Source: Candidatus Enterousia onthequi
GTDB taxonomy: Bacteria > Pseudomonadota > Alphaproteobacteria > Rs-D84
NCBI GenBank assembly: GCA_018064365.1
Contig: JAGHVJ010000005.1
Span: forward strand, 7,982-71,981
Direction of reading: 5' to 3'
Length of the DNA: 64,000 nt
This document shows positions 3,172 to 61,631 of the stretch, in pieces. The notes beneath the pieces were generated by a model, which saw only the letters and a program-made list of their open reading frames with translations, was not told the DNA's origin and ran no database searches. The translations under genes were made by a program, and so were the position numbers. Each line of letters starts with the position of its first letter. Position 1 is the first letter of the stretch.

Positions 3172-5968
<2,797 letters not shown>

Positions 5969-6005
5969 TCCAAATTTGTTTTTCTATTGATGGGGAGATT
6001 TTGTT

Positions 6006-6857
6006 ATGGATAAAGATAAGAAATTATCAGAACAACAAATAGAACAATTTAATGAGATAAGAAAAGAAATATTACGAAGGTTTAATCGTGTAAAAGCTTA
6101 TTCTCAATTTGATCCAAATGTTTTCCCAGTGAGCGCTCGGGCTTATTCTGAAATAAGTGAGGTTTTAGAGCCGCTTGTAGATGTGCTTAGACAAATAGAT
6201 TTAGAAAAATCTTATGACGATAAAAAATTGGAAAATTTTTTATTGGGGTGGAATAATTCTGCGAATGTTTTTTCTAAACATTATGATAAATTGCATGCCA
6301 AAGGTGTTTTGTATGAAGATGTTTGGGATGGTTTAAATGAATTGGATAGGGGGATAACAAATTTTATGCATGGCTTGGGTGTTTTTCAAGAGTATCAAGA
6401 AAAGAAAGAATTTTTAACAGAACAAGATAAAAATAAAAAAAAGCTGGAATTTGAAAAAGAAAAAACACAAGAATCTGACCCTGTGCAAAAATATGAAAAA
6501 GTAATTGCTGAATTGCGACACATTGATGAAATGGTTGATAGGCAACATAGTGATGAATCTTTTAAAAAAATGATGTTTGGATTAAAAGAACTGCGTGATA
6601 AAAAATTGCTGCCGGATAGATATGTTGAGGCATATAGGGCTATATTTAATGAAACGAAAAAGTGTCGTAATACAGAAAATGGTATATTGAGATTGTCTTC
6701 GGAAATAAATTGGCAAATACAAGAAATGCTTGATATAGACAGCAAAAAACAAAAGTTTGATGATGCAACTAAGGCTGTGCTTGATAAGGGACAAAGAAAA
6801 AATAAATTTTTTGAAGAAATGTTTGATAGAAACAAAATCAAAGGTCAGGATTTGTAA
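6006..6857 (+). CDS. Hypothetical Lys/Glu-rich, probably coiled-coil cytoplasmic protein (283 aa)
   Basis: Intact ORF with GGGGAG RBS. No signal peptide. Long charged heptad-like stretches. No family recognised. Confidence 0.6.
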   Translation: MDKDKKLSEQQIEQFNEIRKEILRRFNRVKAYSQFDPNVFPVSARAYSEISEVLEPLVDVLRQIDLEKSYDDKKLENFLLGWNNSANVFSKHYDKLHAKGVLYEDVWDGLNELDRGITNFMHGLGVFQEYQEKKEFLTEQDKNKKKLEFEKEKTQESDPVQKYEKVIAELRHIDEMVDRQHSDESFKKMMFGLKELRDKKLLPDRYVEAYRAIFNETKKCRNTENGILRLSSEINWQIQEMLDIDSKKQKFDDATKAVLDKGQRKNKFFEEMFDRNKIKGQDL

Positions 6858-6862
6858 TAATT

Positions 6863-7543
6863 ATGTTTACGGCGGATTGGTTTTGGCATCTGGATAAAAC
6901 TTTGCGAGAGCATGGTTTGGATTCGGATGCCATGTCTTTTGATGAAATACGCGCACGGTTGTCAAATCGTGAACGGTTGACTGGTGACGAATTTGCTTTT
7001 GAATGTGCGTATGTAATTTTGGCAGGCGGTTTTTCCCAAAAGACTGCAAAAAAAATTCATAAAATTATTTGTGAAAAATTAAAATCTGGTTGTTCAGATG
7101 TGGCAAGTTTGTTGCAAGTGTTTAATAACAAAAATAAAATAAATGCTATTTCTAAAATTTGGAATAATCGTGATGAATTATGTAATCTGTATTATTCACA
7201 GAAAACATTAGATGATAAATTGAATTTTATTGCGACTTTGCCACATATTGGAAAAATTACAGCAAATCATTTGGCGCGAAATTTGGGTGAAAATGTTGTT
7301 AAATATGATGTTTGGATTCAACGTTTGGGAATTGTGTTTGCACGACAAAAACAAAATTCATCTGTTTCGGTTTTTAATGTTGATAATAAAAAGTTAAGTC
7401 CACAAATAAAAAAATGTTGTGATGATATGTTTGATTGTTTGGCACAAGAAACAAATTTACCAATCGGATATATAGATGTTGTTTTATGGAAGTCTGCACA
7501 AAATGGTTTAATCGCGGAGGTGCAACATGGATGTGAAAATTGA
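6863..7543 (+). CDS. HhH-GPD superfamily DNA glycosylase-like protein (endonuclease III-like active-site spacing, no Fe-S cysteine motif seen)
   Basis: LPHIGKITANHLARNLGENVVKYDVWIQRLG parallels Nth LPGVGRKTANVVL...VDTHIFRV. The Lys and Asp are exactly 18 residues apart, as for K120/D138 of E. coli Nth. Overlaps the ung start by 17 nt. Confidence 0.55.
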   Translation: MFTADWFWHLDKTLREHGLDSDAMSFDEIRARLSNRERLTGDEFAFECAYVILAGGFSQKTAKKIHKIICEKLKSGCSDVASLLQVFNNKNKINAISKIWNNRDELCNLYYSQKTLDDKLNFIATLPHIGKITANHLARNLGENVVKYDVWIQRLGIVFARQKQNSSVSVFNVDNKKLSPQIKKCCDDMFDCLAQETNLPIGYIDVVLWKSAQNGLIAEVQHGCEN

Positions 7544-8189
7544 AGAATCGTGGAAACGCGAATTGTCGCCAGAATTTGATAAAGATTATTTTGTAAAATT
7601 GACTGATTTTGTGCGGCAAGAATATTTATCTGGGCGTGCGATTTATCCTGCGGCGCGTAATATTTTTAATGCGTTTAATTTGTGCCCTGTGGATAAAACG
7701 CGTGTTGTGATTATTGGGCAAGACCCATATCACGAACCAGGTCAAGCGATGGGACTTTGTTTTTCTGTGCCGTCTGGGATTACTGTGCCGCCGTCGTTGG
7801 TAAATATTTATCATGAAATTGAATCTGATTTAGGGCGACCGTCTGTGACCCATGGTGATTTAACGCATTGGGCAAACCAAGGAGTGTTATTATTAAATTC
7901 AACTTTGACTGTGCAGGCTCATTTGGCGGCATCGCATGCGGGTCGTGGTTGGGAACAATTTACAGATGCGGTGATTGCGACATTGGCGCGGCGAAAAAAT
8001 ATTGTTTATTTGTTATGGGGCAGTTATGCCCAGAAAAAAGCGGCCTTGGTTGATGCAACACAAAATCTGGTTTTGAAATCTGTGCATCCATCGCCTTTGT
8101 CGGCATATCGTGGTTTTTTTGGATGTAAACATTTTAGTCAGGCAAATGAATACCTGGTGCAACATGGTTTTCAGCCAATTGATTGGTAA
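7527..8189 (+). CDS. ung: Uracil-DNA glycosylase (family 1)
   Basis: Motifs VIIGQDPYHEPGQAMGLCFSV and HPSPLSA. 220 aa. Confidence 0.93.
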   Translation: MDVKIEESWKRELSPEFDKDYFVKLTDFVRQEYLSGRAIYPAARNIFNAFNLCPVDKTRVVIIGQDPYHEPGQAMGLCFSVPSGITVPPSLVNIYHEIESDLGRPSVTHGDLTHWANQGVLLLNSTLTVQAHLAASHAGRGWEQFTDAVIATLARRKNIVYLLWGSYAQKKAALVDATQNLVLKSVHPSPLSAYRGFFGCKHFSQANEYLVQHGFQPIDW

Positions 8190-8200
8190 TAGATTTTTGT

Positions 8201-8776
8201 TTAGAAATTATGTGTTAAACCCAATCCGTAAAACGCATAAGAGTGGTTATCATCCGCAGTGTTTGCGTTTGAAAAATGTTGAACGAATAGTTCTGTTGCC
8301 CATTTTTTGTTGATGTTATACCCCAGCATTACCTTGAATTGGAATACCAATTTTGCACCCAGACGGGCGTTTTCTTTGGCCTGGAGTCCGGCACCCGCAC
8401 CCGCGCCCATATAAAAACGTTTGTATCGAAATAGGGCGATATCTTCGGTTGCATAACCAATTGGAATAGTGTAATCTTGCCATTTCCAACCGTATTTTTC
8501 ACCCAAACCCAATGTCAGTGAAGCGTTTAAATTTCTACGCGCAGGAATTCTGAAAAATGTTGTTGGTTGAGAATATGTGATTGTCCCGATGTAAAAAGGC
8601 ACAGGGCGCACGGGGGGCGGAAAAAGAATACCGGTATCAAAACCCTGGCCAAAACCAAAGGAAAATTGGTTTTGATATTTGCCCATAAACGGGTTAACTT
8701 CTGGTAAAAAACAAGAATCAGCAAAAGCCATTGTTGGTAATATTATTGGTAATAAAAATAATGTTTTTTTCATCAT
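8201..8776 (-). CDS. Outer-membrane acyloxyacyl hydrolase, lipid A deacylase PagL-like
   Basis: Signal peptide MMKKTLFLLPIILPTMAFA. Beta-barrel-like alternating sequence ending in F. HFSNA motif near the C-terminus, like the PagL His-x-Ser catalytic pair. Start trimmed to the MMKK at 8776. Confidence 0.55.
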   Translation of the reverse strand: MMKKTLFLLPIILPTMAFADSCFLPEVNPFMGKYQNQFSFGFGQGFDTGILFPPPVRPVPFYIGTITYSQPTTFFRIPARRNLNASLTLGLGEKYGWKWQDYTIPIGYATEDIALFRYKRFYMGAGAGAGLQAKENARLGAKLVFQFKVMLGYNINKKWATELFVQHFSNANTADDNHSYAFYGLGLTHNF

Positions 8777-8841
8777 ACGAGCAATAATATCATATTTTGT
8801 GTGTAAAAACAAACGGAATAAATATGTTTTTTTGCAATTGC

Positions 8842-9050
8842 TTGATTTTTCAGATTTGTTAATGTATTATGCATCTCGCACAGGGTGTTCTTGTGTGGGG
8901 AATCACAGCCCCGTTGGTGGACACGATAGAGGTCGTGTTATGGACCTCTCCAACCTAGGTTGGAGTGCGGTGAATATATTGAATAAATCGCTCAATTCTT
9001 ACCAATTGCTGTGAAACTCCAACCATCTATTTTTAGATGGTTTTTTGTTT
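8842..9050 (+). promoter_or_regulatory. Candidate promoter plus ~170-nt structured leader or small RNA, ending in an intrinsic terminator just before the 9068 ORF
   Basis: Promoter: TTGATT (8842-8847), 17 nt spacer, TATTAT (8865-8870). Hairpins: GGGG/CCCC 8897-8912, AGAGGTC/GACCTCT 8928-8949, CTCCAACC/GGTTGGAG 8948-8965. A second CTCCAACC at 9017-9024 overlaps the terminator AACCATCTA-TTTT-TAGATGGTT (9021-9042), which is followed by a T-run. Confidence 0.4.
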
Positions 9051-9410: not shown

Positions 9411-9484
9411 TGGTGCCCTAAGCAAGAATCGGACTTGCGACTCGTCCTTACCAAGGACGTGTTTTACCACTAGACTATTAGGGC
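9411..9484 (-). tRNA. tRNA-Thr (anticodon GGU), CCA encoded
   Basis: Manual cloverleaf on the reverse complement. Acceptor GCCCTAA/TTAGGGC. D-loop AGTGGTA. Anticodon stem CGTCC/GGACG with loop TTGGTAA. T-arm GCAAG-TCCGATT-CTTGC. Discriminator A, then CCA. Confidence 0.9.
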
Positions 9485-9580: not shown

Positions 9581-9657
9581 GGCGGGATAGCTCAGCTGGT
9601 TAGAGCAGTGGAATCATAATCCACGTGTCGGGGGTCCGAGTCCCTCTCCCGCTACCA
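9581..9657 (+). tRNA. tRNA with CAU anticodon (elongator Met or lysidine-type Ile2, not initiator), CCA encoded
   Basis: Acceptor GGCGGGA/TCCCGCT (G1-U72 wobble). D-arm GCTC-AGCTGGTTA-GAGC. Anticodon stem GTGGA/TCCAC with loop ATCATAA. T-arm GGGGG-TCCGAGT-CCCTC. Lacks the initiator-specific 1:72 mismatch and the three G-C pairs in the anticodon stem. Confidence 0.9.
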
Positions 9658-18820: not shown

Positions 18821-21079
18821 TTATCCATTATTGTTTCCTGGAACGTATATATAACCACCAGAATTGCTTCTTTTGTTATTTTGTATTTGTTTGTTCAAAT
18901 CATTAATACCCTTGGCAATCCCATTAAAACATGTTTCTACATTATTTGTACTAATTGATTTACAGTTATCGGTATATTTGCTGTCCAATAAAGTTTTCAA
19001 AACTGTTGAATCTGCGGTCAATTGTTTTTTTACATTGTTTTTCAAATTCTTTTTTGTGACATATGGTTGTAATTTAGAATAATTTGAACGCAAGCATGAT
19101 AATGCTGTTTCTTCATCGATTGGGCTGCATGTGTCAAACTCTACCTTGTCTGTGGATTGGTCATCGTCGGATGATGTGCCGCCGGCAACCTGGACAGATG
19201 CCTTTAATACTTCTTTTTCCAACATGACCTTTAATTGTTTAATCATTTGTTCCAGTGTTGCGTATTGTTTATACATTTGTTGTGCAATCACTGTTGTTTT
19301 CAATGCGATGATTTCGTTCATTTTTTCGCGGTCTTCGGATTTTGTTATTTCGTCATTCTTTGTAAATCCCGCGTTCCATGCGTGCGTATCACACAGTGCA
19401 AATACCGGATCAACATAAGAAATATCTATATCCAAATCATAACATGATGATTTGCATTTTTCGGAATCTGTGCCAGGTACATTTTCACAACATGCACCTT
19501 TATCTTTGGCATCTTGGCCCAATGCCTTGGAAACGGTTGCGGCTTTTAATTTATTAATCGCATTTTCTTTGGTGGTATCAAAACCCAATCCACACATTTG
19601 TGCCGCATCATTTGCACATGAGTTGTTGTTTGTAGTTACTATTATATCTGTGCAGTTGGATTTATGTTTTAATGAGCCCTCGGTTTGATTTAACAAAATT
19701 TCCAACAAATCGATATCGATGCCGGATTTATTTTTACTGCTGCTGCGGCGACGGCGAATAAGGCCGTTGTTGATACTGTCGCTGGCACAACCGATACGCA
19801 CAGAACCCGTGGATGATGCGTCGGGATTTAAGATTTTTTCTTGGATTGCGCCATCGTTTGGGTCCAGGTATTTATTCGGTGTGCATGCAATCAAATCTTC
19901 GGGTGGAATAACATTTCCTTCATAACAATCGTGTCCTCCACGAGTGATACCATTATTTTTGCTGGATTTATGTGTGTCTTTTATGCAATTATCTTCATAT
20001 TTATATGTTGGTAAACCGGATTCACATTTTCTGCTTTCTCCTTCGCCAGTGCATTTTTCAGCATAATTCCCGCGGCAAACGTATTCAGCCCAGCGGTTGC
20101 AAGAGCCACTGAAAAACATATAAATATTACCCAAATCGACACCGACCGATTGTGCGGTGAACAATGCGTCGTCCAGGTTGTCCGCCAATGCGTCGTATGG
20201 TTCCATAAATTTGTTTGCCAATTCGCGGAATTTTGCAACACGTTTTGGGGCACTGCAATTATTTCCATTGACCTCGTTACATTTGGCATAGCGGAACGCG
20301 TCACGCATTGTTGTTTTCAAATTATTCAAACTTTGGTCGACGCCTTCCATACTGGTTAAAATTTGTCCCGTTATTGTTGCACGCGCAATCACATCATCCG
20401 ATACACCCGATTTTGCCGCCGCTTCTTGCGCAGCCGTCAAACCAGTTCCCGGATTAGCCTGGACTGCCTGCGCTTGTACCTGTGCCGACGCCGCAGCCGC
20501 AGCCGCAGAAATTGCATCTTGGTTACTGCGTTGAGATTCCGCCAACTGTTGTTGCAAAGAATCTATTTGTGCGCTGTTTTGTTGTTGCATGGATGCCATT
20601 TGTTGCTGCATCGATTGTAATTGTTGTTGCAACGCCGCATTATTTTGTTCCGCCGCCGCGGTGGCTGCCGCCGCGTTTGCCGCCGCCGCATTTTGTGCCG
20701 CGATTGAATCAGATACCAATTGTGCCGCGATTGCGTTTATTAAATCGTCACCGTGTTTTTTGCATGTTGCATTTGAATTTACACATCCCGCAACAATCGG
20801 TTTTGCAATATCCATATTTGCACAACCGCCACCCGAACATTTGGGCGACGCACATCGCAAAATCAAAGAATTACAATTTCCAAAATCTGCCGTAGCCTTG
20901 GGCGACGCCGCATTATTACGCGGATTTGTTGCGTTGTTCCACTGATTACCAACCACCGACCCCATAGAACCATTATATTGGGTTAAATTACTGCCCGCGG
21001 TTTGCGCAATGGGTGCCGCCGCAACCGCAAATGGCGCGCATAAAAACAAAGTCGAAAAAATTTTAATGAACGTTCTCAA
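18821..21079 (-). CDS. Large secreted Cys-rich protein with an Ala/Gln-rich coiled-coil-like region (752 aa), function unknown
   Basis: Signal peptide MRTFIKIFSTLFLCAPFAVAAAP. About 40 Cys scattered through it. AAQNAAAANAAAATAAAEQNNAALQQQLQSMQQQMASMQQQ low-complexity block. No family recognised. Confidence 0.8.
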   Translation of the reverse strand: MRTFIKIFSTLFLCAPFAVAAAPIAQTAGSNLTQYNGSMGSVVGNQWNNATNPRNNAASPKATADFGNCNSLILRCASPKCSGGGCANMDIAKPIVAGCVNSNATCKKHGDDLINAIAAQLVSDSIAAQNAAAANAAAATAAAEQNNAALQQQLQSMQQQMASMQQQNSAQIDSLQQQLAESQRSNQDAISAAAAAASAQVQAQAVQANPGTGLTAAQEAAAKSGVSDDVIARATITGQILTSMEGVDQSLNNLKTTMRDAFRYAKCNEVNGNNCSAPKRVAKFRELANKFMEPYDALADNLDDALFTAQSVGVDLGNIYMFFSGSCNRWAEYVCRGNYAEKCTGEGESRKCESGLPTYKYEDNCIKDTHKSSKNNGITRGGHDCYEGNVIPPEDLIACTPNKYLDPNDGAIQEKILNPDASSTGSVRIGCASDSINNGLIRRRRSSSKNKSGIDIDLLEILLNQTEGSLKHKSNCTDIIVTTNNNSCANDAAQMCGLGFDTTKENAINKLKAATVSKALGQDAKDKGACCENVPGTDSEKCKSSCYDLDIDISYVDPVFALCDTHAWNAGFTKNDEITKSEDREKMNEIIALKTTVIAQQMYKQYATLEQMIKQLKVMLEKEVLKASVQVAGGTSSDDDQSTDKVEFDTCSPIDEETALSCLRSNYSKLQPYVTKKNLKNNVKKQLTADSTVLKTLLDSKYTDNCKSISTNNVETCFNGIAKGINDLNKQIQNNKRSNSGGYIYVPGNNNG

Positions 21080-54114: not shown

Positions 54115-54480
54115 ATGGTAAATAATATAAAAAATAGTAACGAGTGGACTTTGGCGGTTGCAAATCTGGCAGCGGCGGCGATGGCGAATAATCCAAATTT
54201 GTCGATGGTTGATGCGGTAAATGCGGCACGGGCTACGTTATGTGGAACAACGGTTACACCACAACAAATCGCGGATTCTGTGCATTCAGACAAGATTCAA
54301 TGTCTGGAAGATGGAACGTGGCATGTTATGTTGCGGCGGTATATTAGACGGCGTTTTAATATGACGCCTGAACAATATCGTGCCAAGTGGGGATTGCCAG
54401 AAGATTATCCTTTTGTTGCGCCAAACTATGCTCATGTGCGGTCGAAAATTGCAAAAAAAACGGGATTGGGTAAAAAATAA
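54115..54480 (+). CDS. mucR: MucR/Ros-family transcriptional regulator with substituted zinc ligands
   Basis: CLEDGTWHVMLRRYIRRRFNMTPEQYRAKWGLPEDYPFVAPNYAHVRSKIAKKTGLG aligns with Ros [44 protein letters not shown]. Confidence 0.85.
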   Translation: MVNNIKNSNEWTLAVANLAAAAMANNPNLSMVDAVNAARATLCGTTVTPQQIADSVHSDKIQCLEDGTWHVMLRRYIRRRFNMTPEQYRAKWGLPEDYPFVAPNYAHVRSKIAKKTGLGKK

Positions 54481-54483
54481 TTT

Positions 54484-56292
54484 ATGGGGGAAATTATGAC
54501 TGAAAAATATCGCAAGGCAGTTTACAAGCCAATTAAATTGATGAATAAGCAAATTGGAAAAATTGCAAAAAAAGATGCGCCTACAAAGACTAAAAAGTTT
54601 CTAAAAGGGTCGGCTTTGGTTGGTTTAGGGTTGGTTGATTTGATAATGATGCTGACTCGGTTGATTGCGTTTGATAACAGGGCAATGCGTTTGTTGGAAA
54701 AAAAATTGTCTGAAATTAATGTTGGAAAAGACAAACAGGGACGTGATAAAAAATTTCCATCTTTGGTGAAAAACAATCCAAATGTGTCTGCATTTATTAT
54801 TTGGTGGGCAATGCTGGCTGGGACGATTGGTATTGGGTCGGCGATTACAAATGCGTTTGGTGATAAAGATATCGATAATGTTAAACGGCAAGAGGAAAAA
54901 GTAAAAAAACAGTCTGGTACAGATGAAAAAACTGTGTCTTTTGAAGTTGCCAAAAAACAGGCGCAAATAAAAGAAAGGTTGGATAAAAAAATAAAAATGA
55001 CCAATGACAGTGTTTTGAAACAAGCGGTGTTGGATAATTTTGCATATACCCAGGCGGTTTTGTTTTCTACTGAAAATTATAGAACAGATTGGTTTTGTGA
55101 TTATAACACAGGTAATGCAAATACTTTGGGGGTTGGTTTGTTTTATTTGCCAGATGCGAAACATTCGTATGATTTTACATCTACGTCGTGGGCAAAAACA
55201 TCTGATATGTACAAAGAATATCCAAAAAATAAATCTGGTAAGCCCAGAGATTTGACTGATGATGAAGTGTATGATGGAATTGCTGGGTGGTTCTTTTATA
55301 TGGATGGTGGACGTAATTTTAAGCGTGGTATGTGCGATGTTTTGGGTAAATCTAACATTTATTTAACACCTCGTGATTTAACTGTGATTTCTTCTGTGAC
55401 TTTTAATTCGTTGCAATGTGGTAAAAAGTTTTGTGAATTTATTGTTGCACACCCTAATAATCGTCAGGCTTGGGCGAAATATTTGTTGCAGGTTGATGAT
55501 GTGGTTAGTGCGAATAGATTAAACAATTTTCCAGGTTTAAAATCGCGCCGAGTGCATGAAATCTTGTTGTTATTGGATGTTGATAATTATTGCAGTGATA
55601 TGTTCTGTGTGCAAATTGATGGACATCATTCCAGTGCTGTATCGTATGCAAATAATTATTTTGATAAATTGAAAATAAATTTTGCAGATTCTGTTTTGGT
55701 GCAGGCAAAAAGTGCTATTTGTAATGGTGTTGTTGCAAATGGTTTTAATGTGTGTGAAGCAGTACAAAAGTCTGAGAAATATCGTGATGATGTTTTTGCG
55801 TATTGTGCGGATGTCGATTCGTTCTTGTACGCGGATAAATCTCGTCAGAAAATATATGATGAGGCATTGGAAAGTTATCGTGATAAAGATTATGAAACTG
55901 CGTTGCGTGGTTTTAACAAGGTTGTTGAAATGGGTGGGGTTAGTCCGGATTTGTTTAATGATTTGGCAATTACATATATTCATTATGAAGATTATGATAT
56001 GTCTATCAAGATGTCTAAGCGTGCATTGGATTTTGGTAATAAAAAAACAATGTCTGCGTCTTATTTTAATTTAGGACTGGCATATGAAAAGAAGGGGGAT
56101 AAAAAACAGGCAGAGGTATATTATTCTAAAGCGGTAGAATTAGATAATGAAACTGCGAAAAAGAAGTTAAATAAATTGAAAAAAGATAATGCGAAAAAAA
56201 TGTCGAATGCTGTGGCAGAAATAACTCGTAAGCAAATGAATACATCTGGTTTTGCAAAGGGGCTGTTTGTAAAAGATAAAAATTATGTTTAA
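54484..56292 (+). CDS. Membrane-anchored protein with a possible lysozyme-like (GH24-type E...D...T motif) central region and C-terminal TPR repeats
   Basis: Two hydrophobic helices near the N-terminus. STENYRTDWFCDYNTGNANTLGVG resembles the T4-lysozyme E-x8-D-x5-T-x-G-x-G motif, with a 2-residue insertion (T at +17 not +15). TPR-like YETALRGFNKVVEMGG and NLGLAYEKKGDKKQAEVYYSKAVELD. Confidence 0.5.
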   Translation: MGEIMTEKYRKAVYKPIKLMNKQIGKIAKKDAPTKTKKFLKGSALVGLGLVDLIMMLTRLIAFDNRAMRLLEKKLSEINVGKDKQGRDKKFPSLVKNNPNVSAFIIWWAMLAGTIGIGSAITNAFGDKDIDNVKRQEEKVKKQSGTDEKTVSFEVAKKQAQIKERLDKKIKMTNDSVLKQAVLDNFAYTQAVLFSTENYRTDWFCDYNTGNANTLGVGLFYLPDAKHSYDFTSTSWAKTSDMYKEYPKNKSGKPRDLTDDEVYDGIAGWFFYMDGGRNFKRGMCDVLGKSNIYLTPRDLTVISSVTFNSLQCGKKFCEFIVAHPNNRQAWAKYLLQVDDVVSANRLNNFPGLKSRRVHEILLLLDVDNYCSDMFCVQIDGHHSSAVSYANNYFDKLKINFADSVLVQAKSAICNGVVANGFNVCEAVQKSEKYRDDVFAYCADVDSFLYADKSRQKIYDEALESYRDKDYETALRGFNKVVEMGGVSPDLFNDLAITYIHYEDYDMSIKMSKRALDFGNKKTMSASYFNLGLAYEKKGDKKQAEVYYSKAVELDNETAKKKLNKLKKDNAKKMSNAVAEITRKQMNTSGFAKGLFVKDKNYV

Positions 56293-56303: not shown

Positions 56304-58235
56304 ATGAAAGTTTGTGTCAATTACAACGATAAACGTTGGAAAAAATATAATATAGATTTTGAAAAAATTGCAAATGCAGTTGTTGGTAAAAAATGTCAAG
56401 ATGCCGAAGTGTCTATTATATTGACAGATGATGCGGAAATTCACGCGTTGAATAAAATGTATCGTAATATTGATAAACCGACAAATGTTTTGTCTTTTGA
56501 ATTGGATGATGATATTTTGCTGGGTGATATTTATATATCGTTGGATACTGTTGTGACCCAGGCGCGTGATGCGGGTATTTCTGTGGAGGCACATACGGCG
56601 CATATGGTTGTACATGGTATGTTTCATTTATTGGGGTATGACCATTTGACAGAAAGAGAAGCGTGCGTAATGGAATCCAAAGAAATAAAAGTTTTGAAAA
56701 AACTGGGTATAAAAAATCCGTATGGTGATGAACAAAGTTTTCCATGGTGGAAGTATGTTGCAACGGGTGTGTTGGGCGCGGTTGCTGCGTTTGGTTTTGC
56801 ACCGTTTAATTTATGGTGGTTGACTGTTTTGTCTGTGGCTGGGGCGTATTGGTTGTTGTGTTCTGGTGGGGCAAAGGTTGGCTTTTGGCGTGCTTGGTTG
56901 CGTGCAATGCCGTTTGGTGCAATGTATGCGATATCTATGTTTTGGTGGGTGTTAAATTCGATTTATGTGGTGCCTGAACTGGCACGTCAGTTTGCGATAT
57001 GGACTGTGCCGGGGTTGGTTGGCATTGGTATCGTTGGTGCAATTATATTTACAATTCCGTTTGTATTGACATTGTGTATATACATAAAATCTGGGGCGAG
57101 ACCAATTTTGTTTGCTGGGGCTTGGATGAGTGTCTTGTGGTTGCGCGAATGGTTGTTTACTGGTTTTCCGTGGAATCCGATTGCAAATATTATGTTGCCG
57201 TATCCGGTGGTTTCTAATTCTATGTCTGTATTTGGGGCGTTGGGGTTGACGTTTATTATTGTTGGATTGGTGGCGACGGTTGTACAAATGTTGTGTAATC
57301 GGCGTAATTGGGTATTACGTTGGGTGTTTTTGTTTTTTGTTTTATTGTTGGGTATCGGCATTCTTGGTGGATATAATAATATCAAATTGTCTGGTTTGGG
57401 TGATGATTCTGGTGTTGTGCGTATTGTACAACCTGCGACGACACAGCAAAAAAAGATTTCTTTATCGCGTGTAGATGCATTGAATCAGGCAAAAAATAGA
57501 GTTCAATCGTTGATTGATTTGGCGGGTGATGTGAGTAATGTTGATTTGGTTGTATATCCAGAAACATCGTATCCGTTTGTTTTGTTGCGTAATGATGTAT
57601 TGCCTATTGCAGAAAAATTAAACAAGCGCGTTATCATTGGTTCAAATGTGTATGATGCGGGTAATGTTTATAATTCTTTGGTTGTTTCAGGAGCAGATGG
57701 TTCGATATTTGATATATATGATAAATCGCATTTAGTGCCTTTTGGTGAATATGGACCGATTAAATTTGTGCCTGCGCCGGCAAATTTAACCGCGGGTGAT
57801 GGCGCGACTGTTATATCGATAGATGGTAGTGCAGGGCGAAATTTCGTTTTTGCACCGGCTGTATGTTATGAAATTATTTTTTCTGATGCAGTTGTAAAAC
57901 AATCTGGGGTAGATGCGATTATAAATATAACAAATGATACTTGGTTTGGAAAAACACCGGGGACGTATCAACATTTGGATATGGTGCGTCGTGCAGCAAT
58001 AGAATCAGGAGTTCCGGTTATACGTGCGAATTATTCTGGTATCAGTGCTTTTGTTGGTGCAGATGGGGCGATAATTTCGCAGTTGCCGATTGGTCAGGTT
58101 GGAATTTTGGACGGAACAGTACATGGTTCGCATATGACATTATATCGTATGTTGGGTCGTGATGCGTGGTTTTTTATAATCTTTTTGATTGCGTTTTTTG
58201 CCGGATTTGTTGCGTATAGAGCAGATAAAGAATAA
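56304..58235 (+). CDS. Single 643-aa ORF fusing endoribonuclease YbeY (aa 1-140) to apolipoprotein N-acyltransferase Lnt (aa ~145-643)
   Basis: YbeY part: TNVLSFE, HGMFHLLGYDH. Lnt part: multi-TM N-domain, then CN-hydrolase motifs VVYPETS, YDKSHLVPFGEY, VCYEIIF. There is no stop codon and no ATG between the two parts. Confidence 0.85.
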   Translation: MKVCVNYNDKRWKKYNIDFEKIANAVVGKKCQDAEVSIILTDDAEIHALNKMYRNIDKPTNVLSFELDDDILLGDIYISLDTVVTQARDAGISVEAHTAHMVVHGMFHLLGYDHLTEREACVMESKEIKVLKKLGIKNPYGDEQSFPWWKYVATGVLGAVAAFGFAPFNLWWLTVLSVAGAYWLLCSGGAKVGFWRAWLRAMPFGAMYAISMFWWVLNSIYVVPELARQFAIWTVPGLVGIGIVGAIIFTIPFVLTLCIYIKSGARPILFAGAWMSVLWLREWLFTGFPWNPIANIMLPYPVVSNSMSVFGALGLTFIIVGLVATVVQMLCNRRNWVLRWVFLFFVLLLGIGILGGYNNIKLSGLGDDSGVVRIVQPATTQQKKISLSRVDALNQAKNRVQSLIDLAGDVSNVDLVVYPETSYPFVLLRNDVLPIAEKLNKRVIIGSNVYDAGNVYNSLVVSGADGSIFDIYDKSHLVPFGEYGPIKFVPAPANLTAGDGATVISIDGSAGRNFVFAPAVCYEIIFSDAVVKQSGVDAIINITNDTWFGKTPGTYQHLDMVRRAAIESGVPVIRANYSGISAFVGADGAIISQLPIGQVGILDGTVHGSHMTLYRMLGRDAWFFIIFLIAFFAGFVAYRADKE

Positions 58236-58241
58236 TAAAAA

Positions 58242-58445
58242 TTATTTATGAACAGTTTTTAATATCCAAACGCGGATTGCCGAAGACAAGTTTGTGTTTG
58301 GTGTGCGTGTTTGGTCTATTTCAGATATAATAGATGCAATAGATTTGTTTTTGATTCGTGCTATATGCTGTAATTCTGCAATAAATTCTTGTTCCAATGA
58401 TATACTGGTTTGGTGACCGGATAAAGATACGGATAATTTTTTCAT
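58242..58445 (-). CDS. Ribbon-helix-helix protein (RHH_4-like), 67 aa from ATG 58445
   Basis: KLSVSLSGHQTSISLEQEFIAELQHIARIKNKSIASIISEID...NLSSAIRVWIL matches the RHH_4 pattern as I recall it. The start overlaps the upstream stop (TAATG). Confidence 0.6.
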   Translation of the reverse strand: MKKLSVSLSGHQTSISLEQEFIAELQHIARIKNKSIASIISEIDQTRTPNTNLSSAIRVWILKTVHK

Positions 58446-58879
58446 TATAATTTTCCCCCCATTAGGCAATCGTATAATGCGCGATATGCATTGTCGTATG
58501 TCCTTAGAGTATTACCGTTTATGTTATTTAACATATAATATGTGCCAAAAGAATCGAATGCAAACCAAAACAAATCGTTTCTGGCGAATACGGTTTTGTT
58601 TTTTAATGTTGGTATGTTGCGTATTTCTTCGTTTATTTGCACAATACTGGGGATTGGAAAATTTGCCCCGTTTGGTAATTCTGATGGTCCAAACATGTAT
58701 CCAGTGCCCAGGTTAATTCCGGCTGTTTGCATATATAAACTGATAATTTGGTTTGGTAACATGGCGCATTTTTTTTGTTGCAGATTTGAATTTGCAAATT
58801 CTATGGTTCGGGTGTTTGATGGCCCCCATATTAGTGCGCCTTTGTTTTTTATTGATGATAAAAATTCGTCTAGGTTCAT
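58445..58879 (-). CDS. SMI1/KNR4 (SUKH)-like protein, 144 aa
   Basis: Pattern LPNQIISLYMQTAGINLGTGYMFGP ... TVFARNDLFWFAFDSFGTYYML resembles SUKH immunity-type domains. Motif-level call only. Confidence 0.45.
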   Translation of the reverse strand: MNLDEFLSSIKNKGALIWGPSNTRTIEFANSNLQQKKCAMLPNQIISLYMQTAGINLGTGYMFGPSELPNGANFPIPSIVQINEEIRNIPTLKNKTVFARNDLFWFAFDSFGTYYMLNNINGNTLRTYDNAYRALYDCLMGGKL

Positions 58880-58884
58880 ATTTT

Positions 58885-59391
58885 TTATCCCAAAGAGTTG
58901 TTGTTAGCAATTTGTGCCGCCATTTGTGCGAGCCTGTCAGATGTTGCGTTTCCGCCGGCACCGCCACCAGCCGTGTGTGTTGTAATATATATTGCGTGCG
59001 CAGGATTTGGTAACCATAATGTTTCGTTTCCAGATTGTTCCATAATAAATCTGTCTAGTCTGTGTGAATGTGGAAATGTTTGGCATAAAAACATATTTTC
59101 AATAGATAGTTCGCCACCAAGTGTAATTGGTATTCTCCATCGAATAGACGTGTTGCGTGGTAATGCGCGTCCGGTCAATAATCCCATAAATTCGTTTTGT
59201 GATAAATTCATAAACGCTAGTTCTGTTGCGCAATCTGTTAATGTCATCATAAAATCGTGTGCCAATTTATGATATTTTTGAAACCAATCTGGTGGTAATT
59301 GTGTTGTATGTGGGGTGTATTCAATAATTGGCATATCATCCATCCCCAGTTCTGATATTCGTGCAATGGCAGCGGTTTCAGATATTTTCAT
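58885..59391 (-). CDS. Hypothetical 168-aa protein with a degenerate HNH-like (beta-beta-alpha-metal) segment and a Gly-rich tail
   Basis: RWRIPITLGGELSIENMFLCQTFPHSH resembles HHIIPxxxGGxxxxxNLxxLCxxCH, but with the first His pair replaced. Followed by GGGAGGN. ATGA overlap with the upstream gene. Confidence 0.4.
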   Translation of the reverse strand: MKISETAAIARISELGMDDMPIIEYTPHTTQLPPDWFQKYHKLAHDFMMTLTDCATELAFMNLSQNEFMGLLTGRALPRNTSIRWRIPITLGGELSIENMFLCQTFPHSHRLDRFIMEQSGNETLWLPNPAHAIYITTHTAGGGAGGNATSDRLAQMAAQIANNNSLG

Positions 59392-60281
59392 TGTTTTTTC
59401 CCAAGGTATGTAATAACTGTTTCAATATATCCACGAAACGCGTTCATGCTGTCTGATTCTATATCTGCATCAGATTCAGAGATGTTTGGTGTTTCGTCGA
59501 TTATCGTTGCTAAATCGTCAAGTGTTTCTAGGTCTAAAATCGCGTCTACTTTGTCATTGTCAATTGGATTTATTATAAAGGCATTTATATCGATGTCGAT
59601 ATCTTCAAGTGTTTCTTGGAAAGTCGATTGCAATGCCAACATGACGTCCGTCATTTGTTCGTGTGATATGTCGCATGCACCCAACCACAATGTTTCGTCT
59701 GTTCCTAATGCAATTACAGATAATTGTGTGTTGGCAATGTTTGTTTGTGATAATACAGTATAATCATTTTTTTCAAAAATATCCCGGATTTCATGCGTAT
59801 AGCGCGGTTCTGGTGTTTGTGTTTTTTGCTGTGTTGTTGTGGTGGTATTGTGTGTTTTGGTTTGTCTGTTTGGTAAATTATTTTGTGAATTGATTTGTAT
59901 GTGTAAATGCGGGGGGCGTTGAATTGTTGGCGTTTTTTCAGTTGTATTTTGTTGTGTTGGTTGTGTTTCTGGAATTGTTGGTATTGGTGATGTGGTGTTT
60001 TTTTCTGGTTCTGGTTTTTTTATAATGATTTTTCTAAAACGGGGGCGAAATAACATATACAGGCCCAGTATCCCAGATGTTATTGCAATGGTGATTGCAA
60101 TATAAAATCCGGTCGCAATTTGTTGGTTGGTTGCCTGGGCTTTGGCGACGTATGTCCAATGTGTGTTTGAAAATATATTGAAATTATATACGGTGTTTAA
60201 CCAAAAGTCCAAAGCCAACACTATGGCCAAACACCATAGCGTACCAAGTAAAATACAATTTATGCGTTCGTGTAATTTCAT
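59388..60281 (-). CDS. Membrane protein with two N-terminal TM helices, a Thr/Pro/Gln-rich linker and an acidic C-terminal domain (297 aa from ATG 60281)
   Basis: Hydrophobic segments ILLGTLWCLAIVLALDFWL and FYIAITIAITSGILGLYMLF. Low-complexity PEPEKNTTSPIPTIPETQPTQQNTTEKTPT...TTTTTQQKTQTPEP. First gene of a four-gene overlapping operon. Confidence 0.6.
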   Translation of the reverse strand: MKLHERINCILLGTLWCLAIVLALDFWLNTVYNFNIFSNTHWTYVAKAQATNQQIATGFYIAITIAITSGILGLYMLFRPRFRKIIIKKPEPEKNTTSPIPTIPETQPTQQNTTEKTPTIQRPPHLHIQINSQNNLPNRQTKTHNTTTTTQQKTQTPEPRYTHEIRDIFEKNDYTVLSQTNIANTQLSVIALGTDETLWLGACDISHEQMTDVMLALQSTFQETLEDIDIDINAFIINPIDNDKVDAILDLETLDDLATIIDETPNISESDADIESDSMNAFRGYIETVITYLGKKQ

Positions 60282-60323
60282 TTGTTTCAATTATATCATA
60301 TTTATGATAAACTAGAAAGCATA

Positions 60324-60998
60324 ATGATAAATATGAAAGAGATTTTTGAAAATGATAATGTCATCAAGCGGGTCTTGTGGTGGCTGGATGATGAATCAGA
60401 TGATGCAGATTTGGCGGGTGGGGCGGAAAATGCTGTGAACTCGCATGTTGTGAGGTTGTCTGTTGTTCCGGCCAAGGTTCGTGTGGTTTGGCCATGGGTG
60501 GAACGTTTTAGAATTAAAATTATTCCGCGTTTTTATGTCGATTCTGTTGCCGGGAATTGTGTTCCAGAGTTGTGTGCTGATATAAATTCTTGTTTGAAGC
60601 ATGGGGCAGATGGTGCACATGTTATTCTGAAATTAAATGATTTGAATCGATTCGTTGAATCTGTGTCTCCGGTTAGGAGTGATTTGTTTTTTAACAAGTT
60701 TTTGTCTGTTGGTTTTGATGTGTTCGATATTTGGCCGTTGGATTGGACGGGTGTGTTTGATGCGTTAAAAAAGTTGCGTGCAAATTCTTTGTTATTGGTG
60801 TTGACACATGATGACGGTGATAAGTCTGATTTTATTGGTCGTATTTATGGTGCGTTAGAAAATTGGGATGCGTTACCAGACACAGAATTGCACATTATGT
60901 TGGGGGATGGTTTTAACCGTGCCGAGCAAGTGTATCGTTTGGTTGAAAAAGTAAAACCCGAATTATTGGATAAATTATATTTCTGGGTTGGGTATTGA
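60324..60998 (+). CDS. Hypothetical protein (about 224 aa), divergent from the four-gene operon
   Basis: Intact ORF. Start uncertain (ATG 60324 or 60333). The 3' end overlaps the convergent trmB by 24 nt. No family recognised. Confidence 0.5.
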   Translation: MINMKEIFENDNVIKRVLWWLDDESDDADLAGGAENAVNSHVVRLSVVPAKVRVVWPWVERFRIKIIPRFYVDSVAGNCVPELCADINSCLKHGADGAHVILKLNDLNRFVESVSPVRSDLFFNKFLSVGFDVFDIWPLDWTGVFDALKKLRANSLLLVLTHDDGDKSDFIGRIYGALENWDALPDTELHIMLGDGFNRAEQVYRLVEKVKPELLDKLYFWVGY

Positions 60999-61631
60999 TT
61001 TTGTTAAAATCATATATTTGGGTTCTATGGTGCCAGCCATATTTTTTTCTTGATAACGTGTATGAATTGTAGAAAGTGGCGGAAACAATGCATATAGCGC
61101 GGTTTTTTTGTTTTGTTCTGCAATCCAATCAAAATATTCCCAATGGTCGGTGCCAATTATAATTTGGCCGTTTTGTGTTAAATGTTCGCCCAATAAGTTT
61201 AAAAAATCTGAATTTAATAATCGACGTTTTTCGTGTCTTGCTTTGGGCCAAGGGTCAGGGTGTAAAACCCATATTTCGGAAAATTTTATATCAGAATCAT
61301 GTAATAATTTACGAACATCGTCAGGCCAAATCTGGATGTTTTTATATTCTGGTATGATTTGATTGTCCGATTCGCTGGTTATTGCAGATAATAATGCCGC
61401 AACGCCGTTCATAAATGGTTCTGCGCCAATAATTATAGAGGCGGGATTTCGAATCGCTAATTCGCGGACATGTTCACCATTTCCAAACCCAATTTCCAGA
61501 ATTAAATCCCCGGTGTTTTTTGCGTTTTTTGGTGAAATGGCCGGCAAAATATTCGCCAGTAACGATTGTTTTCGTGACGATAATTTTTTACCGTGACGGC
61601 GACCAAATGTTCTTATTTCTTGTTTTTCCAT
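60975..61631 (-). CDS. trmB: tRNA (guanine46-N7)-methyltransferase
   Basis: LEIGFGNGEHV SAM motif and HPDPWPKARHEKRRL signature. Confidence 0.9.
   Translation of the reverse strand: MEKQEIRTFGRRHGKKLSSRKQSLLANILPAISPKNAKNTGDLILEIGFGNGEHVRELAIRNPASIIIGAEPFMNGVAALLSAITSESDNQIIPEYKNIQIWPDDVRKLLHDSDIKFSEIWVLHPDPWPKARHEKRRLLNSDFLNLLGEHLTQNGQIIIGTDHWEYFDWIAEQNKKTALYALFPPLSTIHTRYQEKNMAGTIEPKYMILTKSIPNPEI

Follow-up and report, generated by a model that had tools for sequence, protein, structure and literature searches.

A core operon of the alphaproteobacterial order Rs-D84 that probably descends from an HNH toxin and its SUKH immunity protein

Candidatus Enterousia onthequi belongs to the alphaproteobacterial order Rs-D84, and we analyzed a 64,000-nucleotide stretch of its DNA (contig JAGHVJ010000005.1, positions 7,982–71,981; here called the window) that carries four tightly packed minus-strand genes at 58242–60281. 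These encode a membrane protein (gene 1), a pseudo-HNH protein (gene 2), a SUKH-fold protein (gene 3), and a ribbon-helix-helix (RHH) protein (gene 4). Comparison with relatives indicates that the operon, which is inherited vertically, probably arose by domestication of a secreted HNH-DNase toxin together with its SUKH/YrhA-type immunity protein, and that the gene 2/gene 3 pair probably has a new job today.

Inspection of the open reading frames (ORFs) and the sequence places gene 1 at 59388–60281 (297 aa from its ATG; an alternative upstream TTG start at 60290 is less likely), gene 2 at 58885–59391 (168 aa), gene 3 at 58445–58879 (144 aa), and gene 4 at 58242–58445 (67 aa). The TGA of gene 1 overlaps the ATG of gene 2 as ATGA (59388–59391), a 5-nt gap separates genes 2 and 3 (58880–58884), and the TAA of gene 3 overlaps the ATG of gene 4 as TAATG (58443–58447). 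These three junctions had been reported in a preliminary description made from the sequence alone; they are exact, and the spacings are kept in 81 orthologous loci, with medians of −1, 6, and 1 nt. Thus, the tight packing and coupling is a conserved property and not chance, and the view of these genes as a translationally coupled operon without a named function was right. Pairwise Nei-Gojobori estimates from unsaturated pairs gave ratios of nonsynonymous to synonymous substitution (dN/dS) of 0.12–0.23 for gene 1, 0–0.08 for gene 2, 0.03–0.11 for gene 3, and 0–0.29 for gene 4. All four are real genes, and purifying selection acts on each of them. The outlines of the proteins were also drawn correctly in that description: two transmembrane segments, a linker, and an acidic C-terminal domain in gene 1; a degenerate HNH-like segment and a GGGAGGN tail in gene 2; and, as detailed below, a SUKH-like protein and an RHH protein encoded by genes 3 and 4.

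The AlphaFold2 (AF2) model of gene 2 (mean predicted local distance difference test score, pLDDT, of 81.7) displays a helical N-terminal cap followed by a beta-beta-alpha unit, with strands at residues 81–85 and 100–104 and a helix at 105–117. Residues 140–152 are Gly-rich and disordered (pLDDT <50) and are followed by a C-terminal helix. The tail carries a family-specific motif, GG(N)ATxDR, which is invariant in this family and missing from the enterobacterial toxins discussed below. Direct Pfam and NCBIfam searches with genes 1–3 returned nothing above threshold, and profile sequence searches of the PDB with gene 2, gene 3, and the divergent neighbor orf224 returned nothing meaningful. The homology of gene 2 to Pfam-HNH-positive proteins is found by hhalign through an HNH protein of IncHI2 plasmids. 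This plasmid protein passes the Pfam HNH model PF01844 (27.1 bits, cut-off 21.4) and matches both the family profile (alignment A4; 98.6%, E = 5.6e-16) and the profile of the Rs-D84 proteins (alignment A1; 89.7%, E = 1.8e-6), and Escherichia coli YhhZ matches the family profile at 98.4%. By these profile comparisons, gene 2 belongs to the HNH toxin-domain family of YhhZ, an Hcp-HNH protein, and the IncHI2 HNH proteins. The family is small, since a profile search of 1.8 billion representative proteins yielded just 80 matches, and its remote members are 24–33% identical.

When these proteins are placed in a common alignment, the active site is seen to change by clade. The enterobacterial proteins read VHHK ... 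N ... PYH, a sister clade linked to VirD4 genes reads IH(I/V)R ... N ... P(F/Y)H and keeps two of the three His positions, and the Rs-D84 proteins read IR(F/W)R ... N ... PHS. The structural Asn (N99) is invariant throughout. None of the catalytic or metal-binding histidines, that is, the HH pair on strand 1 and the His on the helix, is kept in the Rs-D84 gene 2 proteins (n = 120): the three positions are occupied by Arg84 (118 of 120), by Phe, Trp, or Leu at 85, and by Ser109 (100 of 120), and the window protein has R84, W85, and S109. A reading in which the sister clade possesses a full H-N-H triad (H84/N99/H113) was rejected, as the Pfam-positive enterobacterial alignment gives HH..N..H. 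The charge of the pair differs as well. In the VirD4-linked and P0148 clades the gene 2 domain has an isoelectric point (pI) of 9.2–9.8 (7.2 in L093) and its SUKH partner one of 4.7–5.1, whereas in Rs-D84 and in the remote loci L090 and L091 the corresponding values are 5.6–6.4 and 5.8–9.0. From the computed values, then, the basic-toxin/acidic-immunity charge pattern is lost in Rs-D84. Because the histidines and the charge have changed and the C-terminal motif is invariant, the simplest reading is that the nuclease chemistry was lost and a protein-protein module was kept.

The AF2 model of gene 3 (pLDDT 92.1) was compared with the PDB using Foldseek, and the top match was the SMI1/KNR4 structure 3d5p (E = 8.4e-4, probability 1.0, TM-scores 0.57/0.61), followed by 2icg (probability 1.0, TM-scores 0.65/0.60), yeast Knr4, the FBXO3-containing SCF complex 9kbd, and 2pag. 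As modeled, gene 3 has the core alpha+beta SUKH fold of the solved SUKH structures (2PRV, 3D5P, 2ICG, 2PAG, and Knr4), in agreement with its earlier description as SUKH-like. Its sequence scores below the cut-offs of the curated SUKH models (SUKH_6, 13.6 bits versus 27) and of the NCBIfam YrhA family NF038335 (23 bits versus 55, E = 5.7e-5, over nearly its full length). A set of 36 gene 3 orthologs gave nine matches to SMI1_KNR4 (five) or SUKH_6 (four), all below threshold, and NCBI labels a protein identical to gene 3 as SMI1/KNR4 family. In every context examined, a SUKH-like gene of 140–144 aa lies directly 3′ of the gene 2 homolog, the position of an immunity gene behind its toxin-domain gene; in the window, gene 3 starts 5 nt after gene 2. 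Such downstream proteins from remote members match the gene 3 profile at 89–94% in hhalign. Direct hhalign of the Rs-D84 gene 3 profile with the plasmid YrhA was not significant, and weak matches to YrhA came only from sister-clade gene 3 proteins. SUKH proteins are proposed immunity proteins of nuclease toxins (PMC3113570). Taken together, position and profile matches suggest that gene 3 is the cognate partner of gene 2 and stems from the YrhA-like immunity-protein lineage.

The relatives of the pair are found in secretion and conjugation contexts. In E. coli K-12, YhhZ consists of an Hcp domain and the C-terminal domain and is followed by yrhA, an architecture like that of the Hcp-ET1 class of type VI secretion system (T6SS) HNH-DNase effectors (PMC6730261). 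The K-12 yhhZ-yrhA pair lies at 3864–6310 of locus L096, where yrhA is interrupted by IS1E. The gene 2 domain of a second group, the VirD4-linked sister clade whose proteins begin MWDWS..., matches a protein annotated as HNH endonuclease on 458 enterobacterial plasmids, of which 433 are conjugative, and a YrhA family protein comes next in both of the records that were inspected. The IncHI2 pair adjoins trhG and trhH; it lies at 7359–8936 of locus L095 (NC_021845.1), inside the transfer region, and is homologous to the chromosomal yhhZ-yrhA. In the MWDWS clade itself, gene 2 bears long P/Q-rich N-terminal extensions, gene 3 is again 144 aa, and both sit directly 3′ of a VirD4/TraG coupling-protein gene that is preceded by two gene 1 paralogs, an order kept in five loci (L084, L085, L089, L092, and L093). 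TrbL/VirB6-like genes lie divergently upstream in L092 and L093. The contexts of these relatives thus put the gene 2/gene 3 pair in a toxin-domain/immunity family tied to T6SS, conjugative type IV secretion systems (T4SS), and VirD4. The MWDWS clade does not carry the RHH_4 gene, whereas the four-gene clades have gained it and show no VirD4 linkage.

Further inspection of L092 (1–9964) and L093 (1–9986) shows a T4SS-like neighborhood with the VirD4 gene and a run of four uncharacterized proteins of 324–368 aa. Two of these are the gene 1 paralogs, none of the four has a Pfam family, and in L092 a segment of one of them recurs at the C-terminus of the TrbL-like protein.

The distribution of the operon differs from that of a mobile toxin system. 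We scanned one genome per GTDB species and found 232 stretches that encode a gene 2 relative, and 80 loci, labeled as Ca. Enterousia, Alphaproteobacteria, or Rickettsiales metagenome-assembled genomes (MAGs), were fetched and compared. By tblastn, genes 1–4 occur in the same order in essentially all 80, where the preliminary description would have counted a lack of co-occurrence against the module; the only gaps fall on short or truncated contigs such as L023. The flanks are constant, with gltX, trmB, and a divergent ORF on one side and a ybeY-lnt fusion gene and usually mucR on the other, and the order ybeY-lnt, operon, divergent ORF, trmB runs across the Rs-D84 loci. The position of the operon is fixed within the order, and each fetched locus has one copy. 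Close homologs of gene 2 (n = 339, 54–89% identical, nearly all ~168 aa) come from alphaproteobacterial MAGs of gut and rumen. Among the Rs-D84 loci farther from the window, median identities are 33% for gene 1, 57% for gene 2, 51% for gene 3, and 67% for gene 4, alongside 55% for lnt and 67% for trmB. A remote clade, L090 and L091, has the same arrangement (gene 1, gene 2, gene 3, an RHH_4 gene, the divergent ORF, and ybeY-lnt) at ~33% identity for gene 2 and ~40% for lnt. The operon is also carried by a complete 716-kb chromosome (L049).

This record (OZ246409.1, 716,531 bp) is titled "uncultured Muribaculaceae bacterium," a taxonomic label that looks wrong: its flanks are alphaproteobacterial and syntenic (gltX, trmB, ybeY-lnt, mucR), and its operon is of the Rs-D84 type.

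Genomes of Rs-D84 measure ~0.67–1.0 Mb and are devoid of the tricarboxylic acid cycle, respiration, and flagella; the lineage depends metabolically on other organisms and does not have standard nutrient transporters (PMC12306168). No relative of the window gene 2 was found in 72,556 plasmids, 50,697 phage records, or the IMG/VR contigs, and a viral association was rejected on the last of these grounds, as the viral contigs hold no relative at all. A PADLOC search gave no match for genes 1, 2, and 3 and a spurious DpdE fragment for gene 4 (E = 0.011), and PHROGs gave nothing above threshold for genes 1–3. Because of the synteny, the distribution, and this lack of plasmid, phage, and defense matches, we regard the operon as a vertically inherited core operon and not a mobile island. 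The sporadic distribution, diversification, and immunity arrays that characterize polymorphic toxins are not seen here: across the 80 loci the genes are single-copy, and dN/dS is 0–0.11 for genes 2 and 3.

Gene 1 contains two hydrophobic segments (about residues 6–29 and 55–79), a T/P/Q-rich linker that bears an RPP(R/H)L motif, and an acidic C-terminal domain with 29 Asp and Glu versus 7 Lys and Arg. The loop between the hydrophobic segments is strongly conserved as FN(I/L)FSxxHWxY...Q, in which H41, W42, and Q49 are invariant (alignment A6). Gene 1 is predicted to be an inner-membrane protein, with its linker and C-terminal domain predicted to be cytosolic by the positive-inside rule. The window protein matches no Pfam family. 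Remote homologs give sub-threshold matches to the NERD domain PF08378 (16.1 bits, E = 0.016 in L091; 20.0 bits, E = 0.0011 in L092; gathering cut-off 22.1 bits) that span profile positions 12–110 of 111, and the alignment places a ~25-aa deletion of the Rs-D84 proteins inside this NERD-like domain. Hence, the C-terminal domain of gene 1 is possibly a shortened NERD-like (nuclease-related) domain.

Gene 4 is an RHH_4 protein (PF13467; E = 2e-20, 73 bits versus a cut-off of 25, residues 2–64 on profile positions 2–66 of 67), which bears out the assignment in the preliminary description. It is 52–79% identical across Rs-D84 and is present in L090 and L091. We consider it the putative autoregulator of the operon, with putative DNA binding and a putative target site; a literature search on RHH_4/PF13467 found nothing relevant. 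A candidate for that site lies in the 42-bp control region that separates the gene 1 start codon from that of orf224 (60282–60323). On the minus strand at 60290–60311, once in the window, this region carries the motif TTTATCAyAAATATGATAyAAT. The motif holds a palindrome, TATCAy-N4-ATGATA, in which each arm is an extended −10 box and the two boxes stand back to back: the gene 1 arm is a perfect extended −10 box, TGATATAAT (TGnTAyAAT), that ends 8–10 nt before the gene 1 ATG, and on the orf224 side a mirrored box, TGATAAA(C/G)T, precedes the orf224 ATG by ~10 nt. Because the −10 box ends so close to the start codon, the gene 1 mRNA would be leaderless or nearly so. The motif is present in 73 of 75 orthologous loci, at 8–10 nt from the ATG in 70, even though the flanking proteins are just 33–41% identical, making the control region far better conserved than the proteins on either side of it. 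An analogous mirrored TGCTATAAT pair is seen in L090 and L091. We infer that the 42-bp region acts as a divergent promoter with the palindrome as a candidate RHH operator, and binding of RHH_4 to the palindrome is a reasonable expectation from the sequence.

On the other side of this region, orf224 (60324–60998, plus strand, 224 aa) is a conserved divergent neighbor; nearly all loci have it, oriented away from gene 1. Its homologs in L090 and L091 are 23–28% identical (28%, E = 1e-18, in L091), and orf224 has no Pfam or PDB match. As orf224 shares the control region and is probably co-regulated, the unit is probably five genes functionally. Two further features of this gene were observed: in L090 and L091 its homolog is followed by an M23 peptidase gene, and in the window its 3′ end overlaps the 3′ end of trmB (60975–61631, minus strand) by 24 nt.

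These observations can be assembled into a model for the present-day operon. In this model, the products of genes 2 and 3 would still form a tight heterodimer, which would be non-toxic and no longer a nuclease, and gene 1 would hold the complex at the cytoplasmic face of the inner membrane. The Gly-linked tail of gene 2 (GGNATxDR and the helix) might serve as the docking peptide for gene 1. RHH_4 would bind the palindrome and thereby set the level of the leaderless, coupled gene 1–4 transcript and of orf224. The present role of the module is probably structural or regulatory at the membrane and independent of secretion, inherited from a secretion-system coupling module, and it would be important enough for the module to outlast extreme genome reduction. 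A more specific version, which we put forward tentatively, is that toxin and immunity protein were turned into an indispensable, catalytically dead module that takes part with membrane NERD-like and RHH proteins in a new process, perhaps serving as a membrane-anchored sensor or scaffold that evolved from a type IV coupling-protein complex. In this version the module would long have been fixed in a free-standing alphaproteobacterial lineage whose genomes are among the most reduced.

Several points weigh against this account. The heterodimer, the membrane tethering, and the RHH autoregulation are all steps that we infer. When the gene 2 model was compared with the PDB and BFVD by Foldseek, the best matches were mostly HNH domains and none was significant (E ≥ 0.37); the structural support for the HNH core is weak by itself, and the assignment rests on profile homology. 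The loss of the canonical histidines is not strictly proof of lost catalysis, because some deeply divergent HNH toxins are known to have unusual active sites (Rehh preprint); Rehh/Tox-REHH itself was set aside as a relative of gene 2, being by its description a different, polymorphic family. In addition, H108 and H110 lie close to the old active site, though neither is invariant. The VirD4-linked sister clade also has no second His of the HH pair, and so active toxicity may have been absent already in the ancestor of the alphaproteobacterial family. Finally, two divergent −10 boxes are enough to explain the palindrome, with no operator involved.

In a first alternative, the system is still an active effector with its immunity protein. 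Here, gene 2 would be toxic through a non-canonical nuclease or other activity and be exported to neighboring cells by a T4SS encoded elsewhere, with its C-terminal tail as the signal, gene 1 as the dock, gene 3 as the protecting protein, and gene 4 as the regulator. The toxin-then-immunity gene order, the YhhZ/YrhA-type homology, and the known HNH toxins with odd active sites are all in keeping with this idea, as are the sister-clade genes directly behind VirD4, with TrbL/VirB6-like genes in some of the loci. The flexible tail of gene 2 (pLDDT <50 at 140–152) followed by a helix resembles many T4SS substrates, and the dependence of Rs-D84 on other organisms, without standard nutrient transporters (PMC12306168), counts in its favor as well. 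However, none of the three active-site histidines is kept, and the acidic member of the pair is gene 2 rather than gene 3, which inverts the nuclease/DNA-mimic pattern of the sister clades. The window gene 2 is a stand-alone 168-aa protein with no trafficking domain or secretion association, and neither polymorphism nor immunity arrays accompany its single copy per fetched locus and its dN/dS below 0.1. Moreover, no T4SS, VirD4, or other secretion gene was found in the 64-kb window or in any 16-kb Rs-D84 locus; our literature search on RF32 and type IV secretion was empty, and secretion systems go unmentioned in the Enterousia paper (PMC12306168). We therefore consider an active effector unlikely.

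A second alternative, to which we assign a similarly low probability, is that gene 2 was never a toxin in the alphaproteobacteria. In Dot/Icm systems, DotM, DotN, and IcmSW sit around the coupling protein DotL, and genes 1–3 might by analogy be adaptor subunits of a type IV coupling protein that Rs-D84 kept for passing substrates to a membrane machine, whether or not an unlinked VirD4 was kept as well. The five loci in which VirD4 stands between two gene 1-like paralogs in front and genes 2 and 3 behind speak for this alternative, and the membrane anchor and cytosolic domain of gene 1 suit an adaptor. The VirD4-linked clade also already has no general-base His, and its members are highly conserved. 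Against it, we detected no homology to known coupling-protein adaptors and no VirD4 near the Rs-D84 operon, and the basic gene 2/acidic SUKH pairs, together with homology to Hcp-fused and plasmid HNH-YrhA proteins, fit toxin and immunity better.

A third alternative, an ordinary type II toxin-antitoxin (addiction) or anti-phage module whose antitoxin or repressor is the RHH protein, would explain the RHH protein, the tight packing, and the nuclease-fold protein, but it is very improbable, and the least likely of the three because of the distribution and the constraint: the operon holds a fixed chromosomal position across the order and beyond instead of occurring sporadically, is retained in genomes of 0.7–1 Mb, and has no PADLOC or PHROG match, the window protein has no relative on plasmids, phages, or viral contigs, its catalytic residues are lost, and its RHH gene stands last with the SUKH gene between it and the nuclease-fold gene, unlike the small, mobile bicistron with antitoxin adjacent to toxin that defines type II systems. 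The same evidence bears on the preliminary description, which had likened the four genes to toxin-immunity, addiction, or defense modules. Its domain vocabulary stands, and the SUKH fold and the toxin-domain homology give it substance as a statement about ancestry. As a statement about a present-day system at a variable site it is not supported, given an operon that is syntenic across the order, a gene 2 under dN/dS of 0–0.08 whose active-site histidines are replaced, and the empty searches of PADLOC, PHROGs, and the plasmid and phage collections. We do not take the operon for a new defense system.

Domestication of a former toxin and its immunity protein, the reading we favor, would have consequences beyond this locus. 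Toxin-immunity pairs are usually fast-evolving, mobile, and dispensable. A YhhZ/YrhA-type pair that has lost its active site yet remains under housekeeping-level constraint in genomes of 0.7–1 Mb, which keep little that they do not need, is an unusual case of retention and, if the reading is true, a concrete case of the exaptation of a conflict system into core cell biology. It would mark a candidate essential or near-essential process in the widespread but uncultured gut and rumen Rs-D84/Ca. Enterousia lineage and offer a handle on the needs of uncultured gut symbionts. In addition, several hundred "hypothetical" proteins gain a family relationship, and a single family unites E. coli YhhZ/YrhA, the IncHI2 transfer-region pair, and the VirD4-adjacent alphaproteobacterial genes.

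The remainder of the window was surveyed for context. Converging on gene 4, with 6 nt between the stop codons, is a 643-aa ORF (56304–58235, plus strand) in which ybeY and lnt are fused (Pfam YbeY, LNT_N, and CN_hydrolase on the identical L001 gene); the fusion also occurs in L090 and L091. Upstream of it (54115–56292, plus strand) are a 121-aa MucR/Ros-family regulator and, after it, a 602-aa TPR-repeat protein with an N-terminal hydrophobic region; mucR is well conserved, whereas the TPR protein is poorly conserved (22–65% identity) and missing from many loci. A 752-aa ORF at 18821–21079 (minus strand) has no Pfam match at E = 1e-5. Other genes of the window are housekeeping genes, among them gyrB, aspS, an asmA-like gene, uvrB, typA, mutL, secD, ftsK, and a ctpA-like S41 peptidase gene, and the only Rfam matches in the 64 kb are two divergent tRNA genes (9414–9484, minus strand; 9581–9654, plus strand).

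The closest known counterparts of the operon are the YhhZ-YrhA and IncHI2 HNH-YrhA pairs, which share with it the HNH sub-family, a helical cap upstream of the beta-beta-alpha core, and a small SUKH/YrhA-like gene directly downstream. Linkage to secretion or conjugation is found in these enterobacterial pairs (Hcp, trhG/trhH) and in the alphaproteobacterial sister clade (VirD4). The enterobacterial proteins differ in being 345–392 aa long with an N-terminal delivery domain, in keeping VHHK..N..PYH, in passing or approaching the Pfam HNH threshold, and in residing on plasmids or islands, whereas the window gene 2 is stand-alone and acidic, has the additional invariant GGNATxDR tail, and belongs to a core operon with membrane and RHH_4 proteins. 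The VirD4-linked clade keeps the relative order of its homologs of genes 1, 2, and 3, but there a VirD4/TraG gene separates the gene 1-like genes from gene 2, TrbL/VirB6-like genes are nearby, gene 2 is mostly basic with a P/Q-rich extension and two histidines kept, and gene 3 is acidic.

Likewise, the SUKH immunity proteins of polymorphic toxins share the SUKH fold and the position directly 3′ of an HNH-fold gene (PMC3113570). Those systems comprise tandem arrays of diverged paralogs and large multidomain toxins with a sporadic distribution (PMC3113570), whereas the Rs-D84 operon is present in one copy without an array, is vertically inherited, has dN/dS of ~0.05, and pairs its SUKH protein with an apparently dead toxin partner. 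A precedent for the housekeeping use of such a protein is Syd of E. coli, a SecY-binding SUKH-2 protein recruited to the cytoplasmic face of a membrane complex (PMC3113570), although Syd belongs to another SUKH group, is likened to gene 3 by fold, and has neither a nuclease-fold partner nor an RHH gene. An HNH-type domain paired with a YrhA/SUKH gene has parallels of a known kind, and the superfamilies involved (HNH by descent, SUKH, RHH_4, and possibly NERD) are known as well. What is new is the link between alphaproteobacterial "hypotheticals" and the YhhZ/YrhA and IncHI2 pairs, the arrangement in which these genes flank VirD4 together with gene 1-like membrane proteins, and the proposed conversion of such a pair into a dead yet strongly constrained core operon in a reduced-genome lineage.

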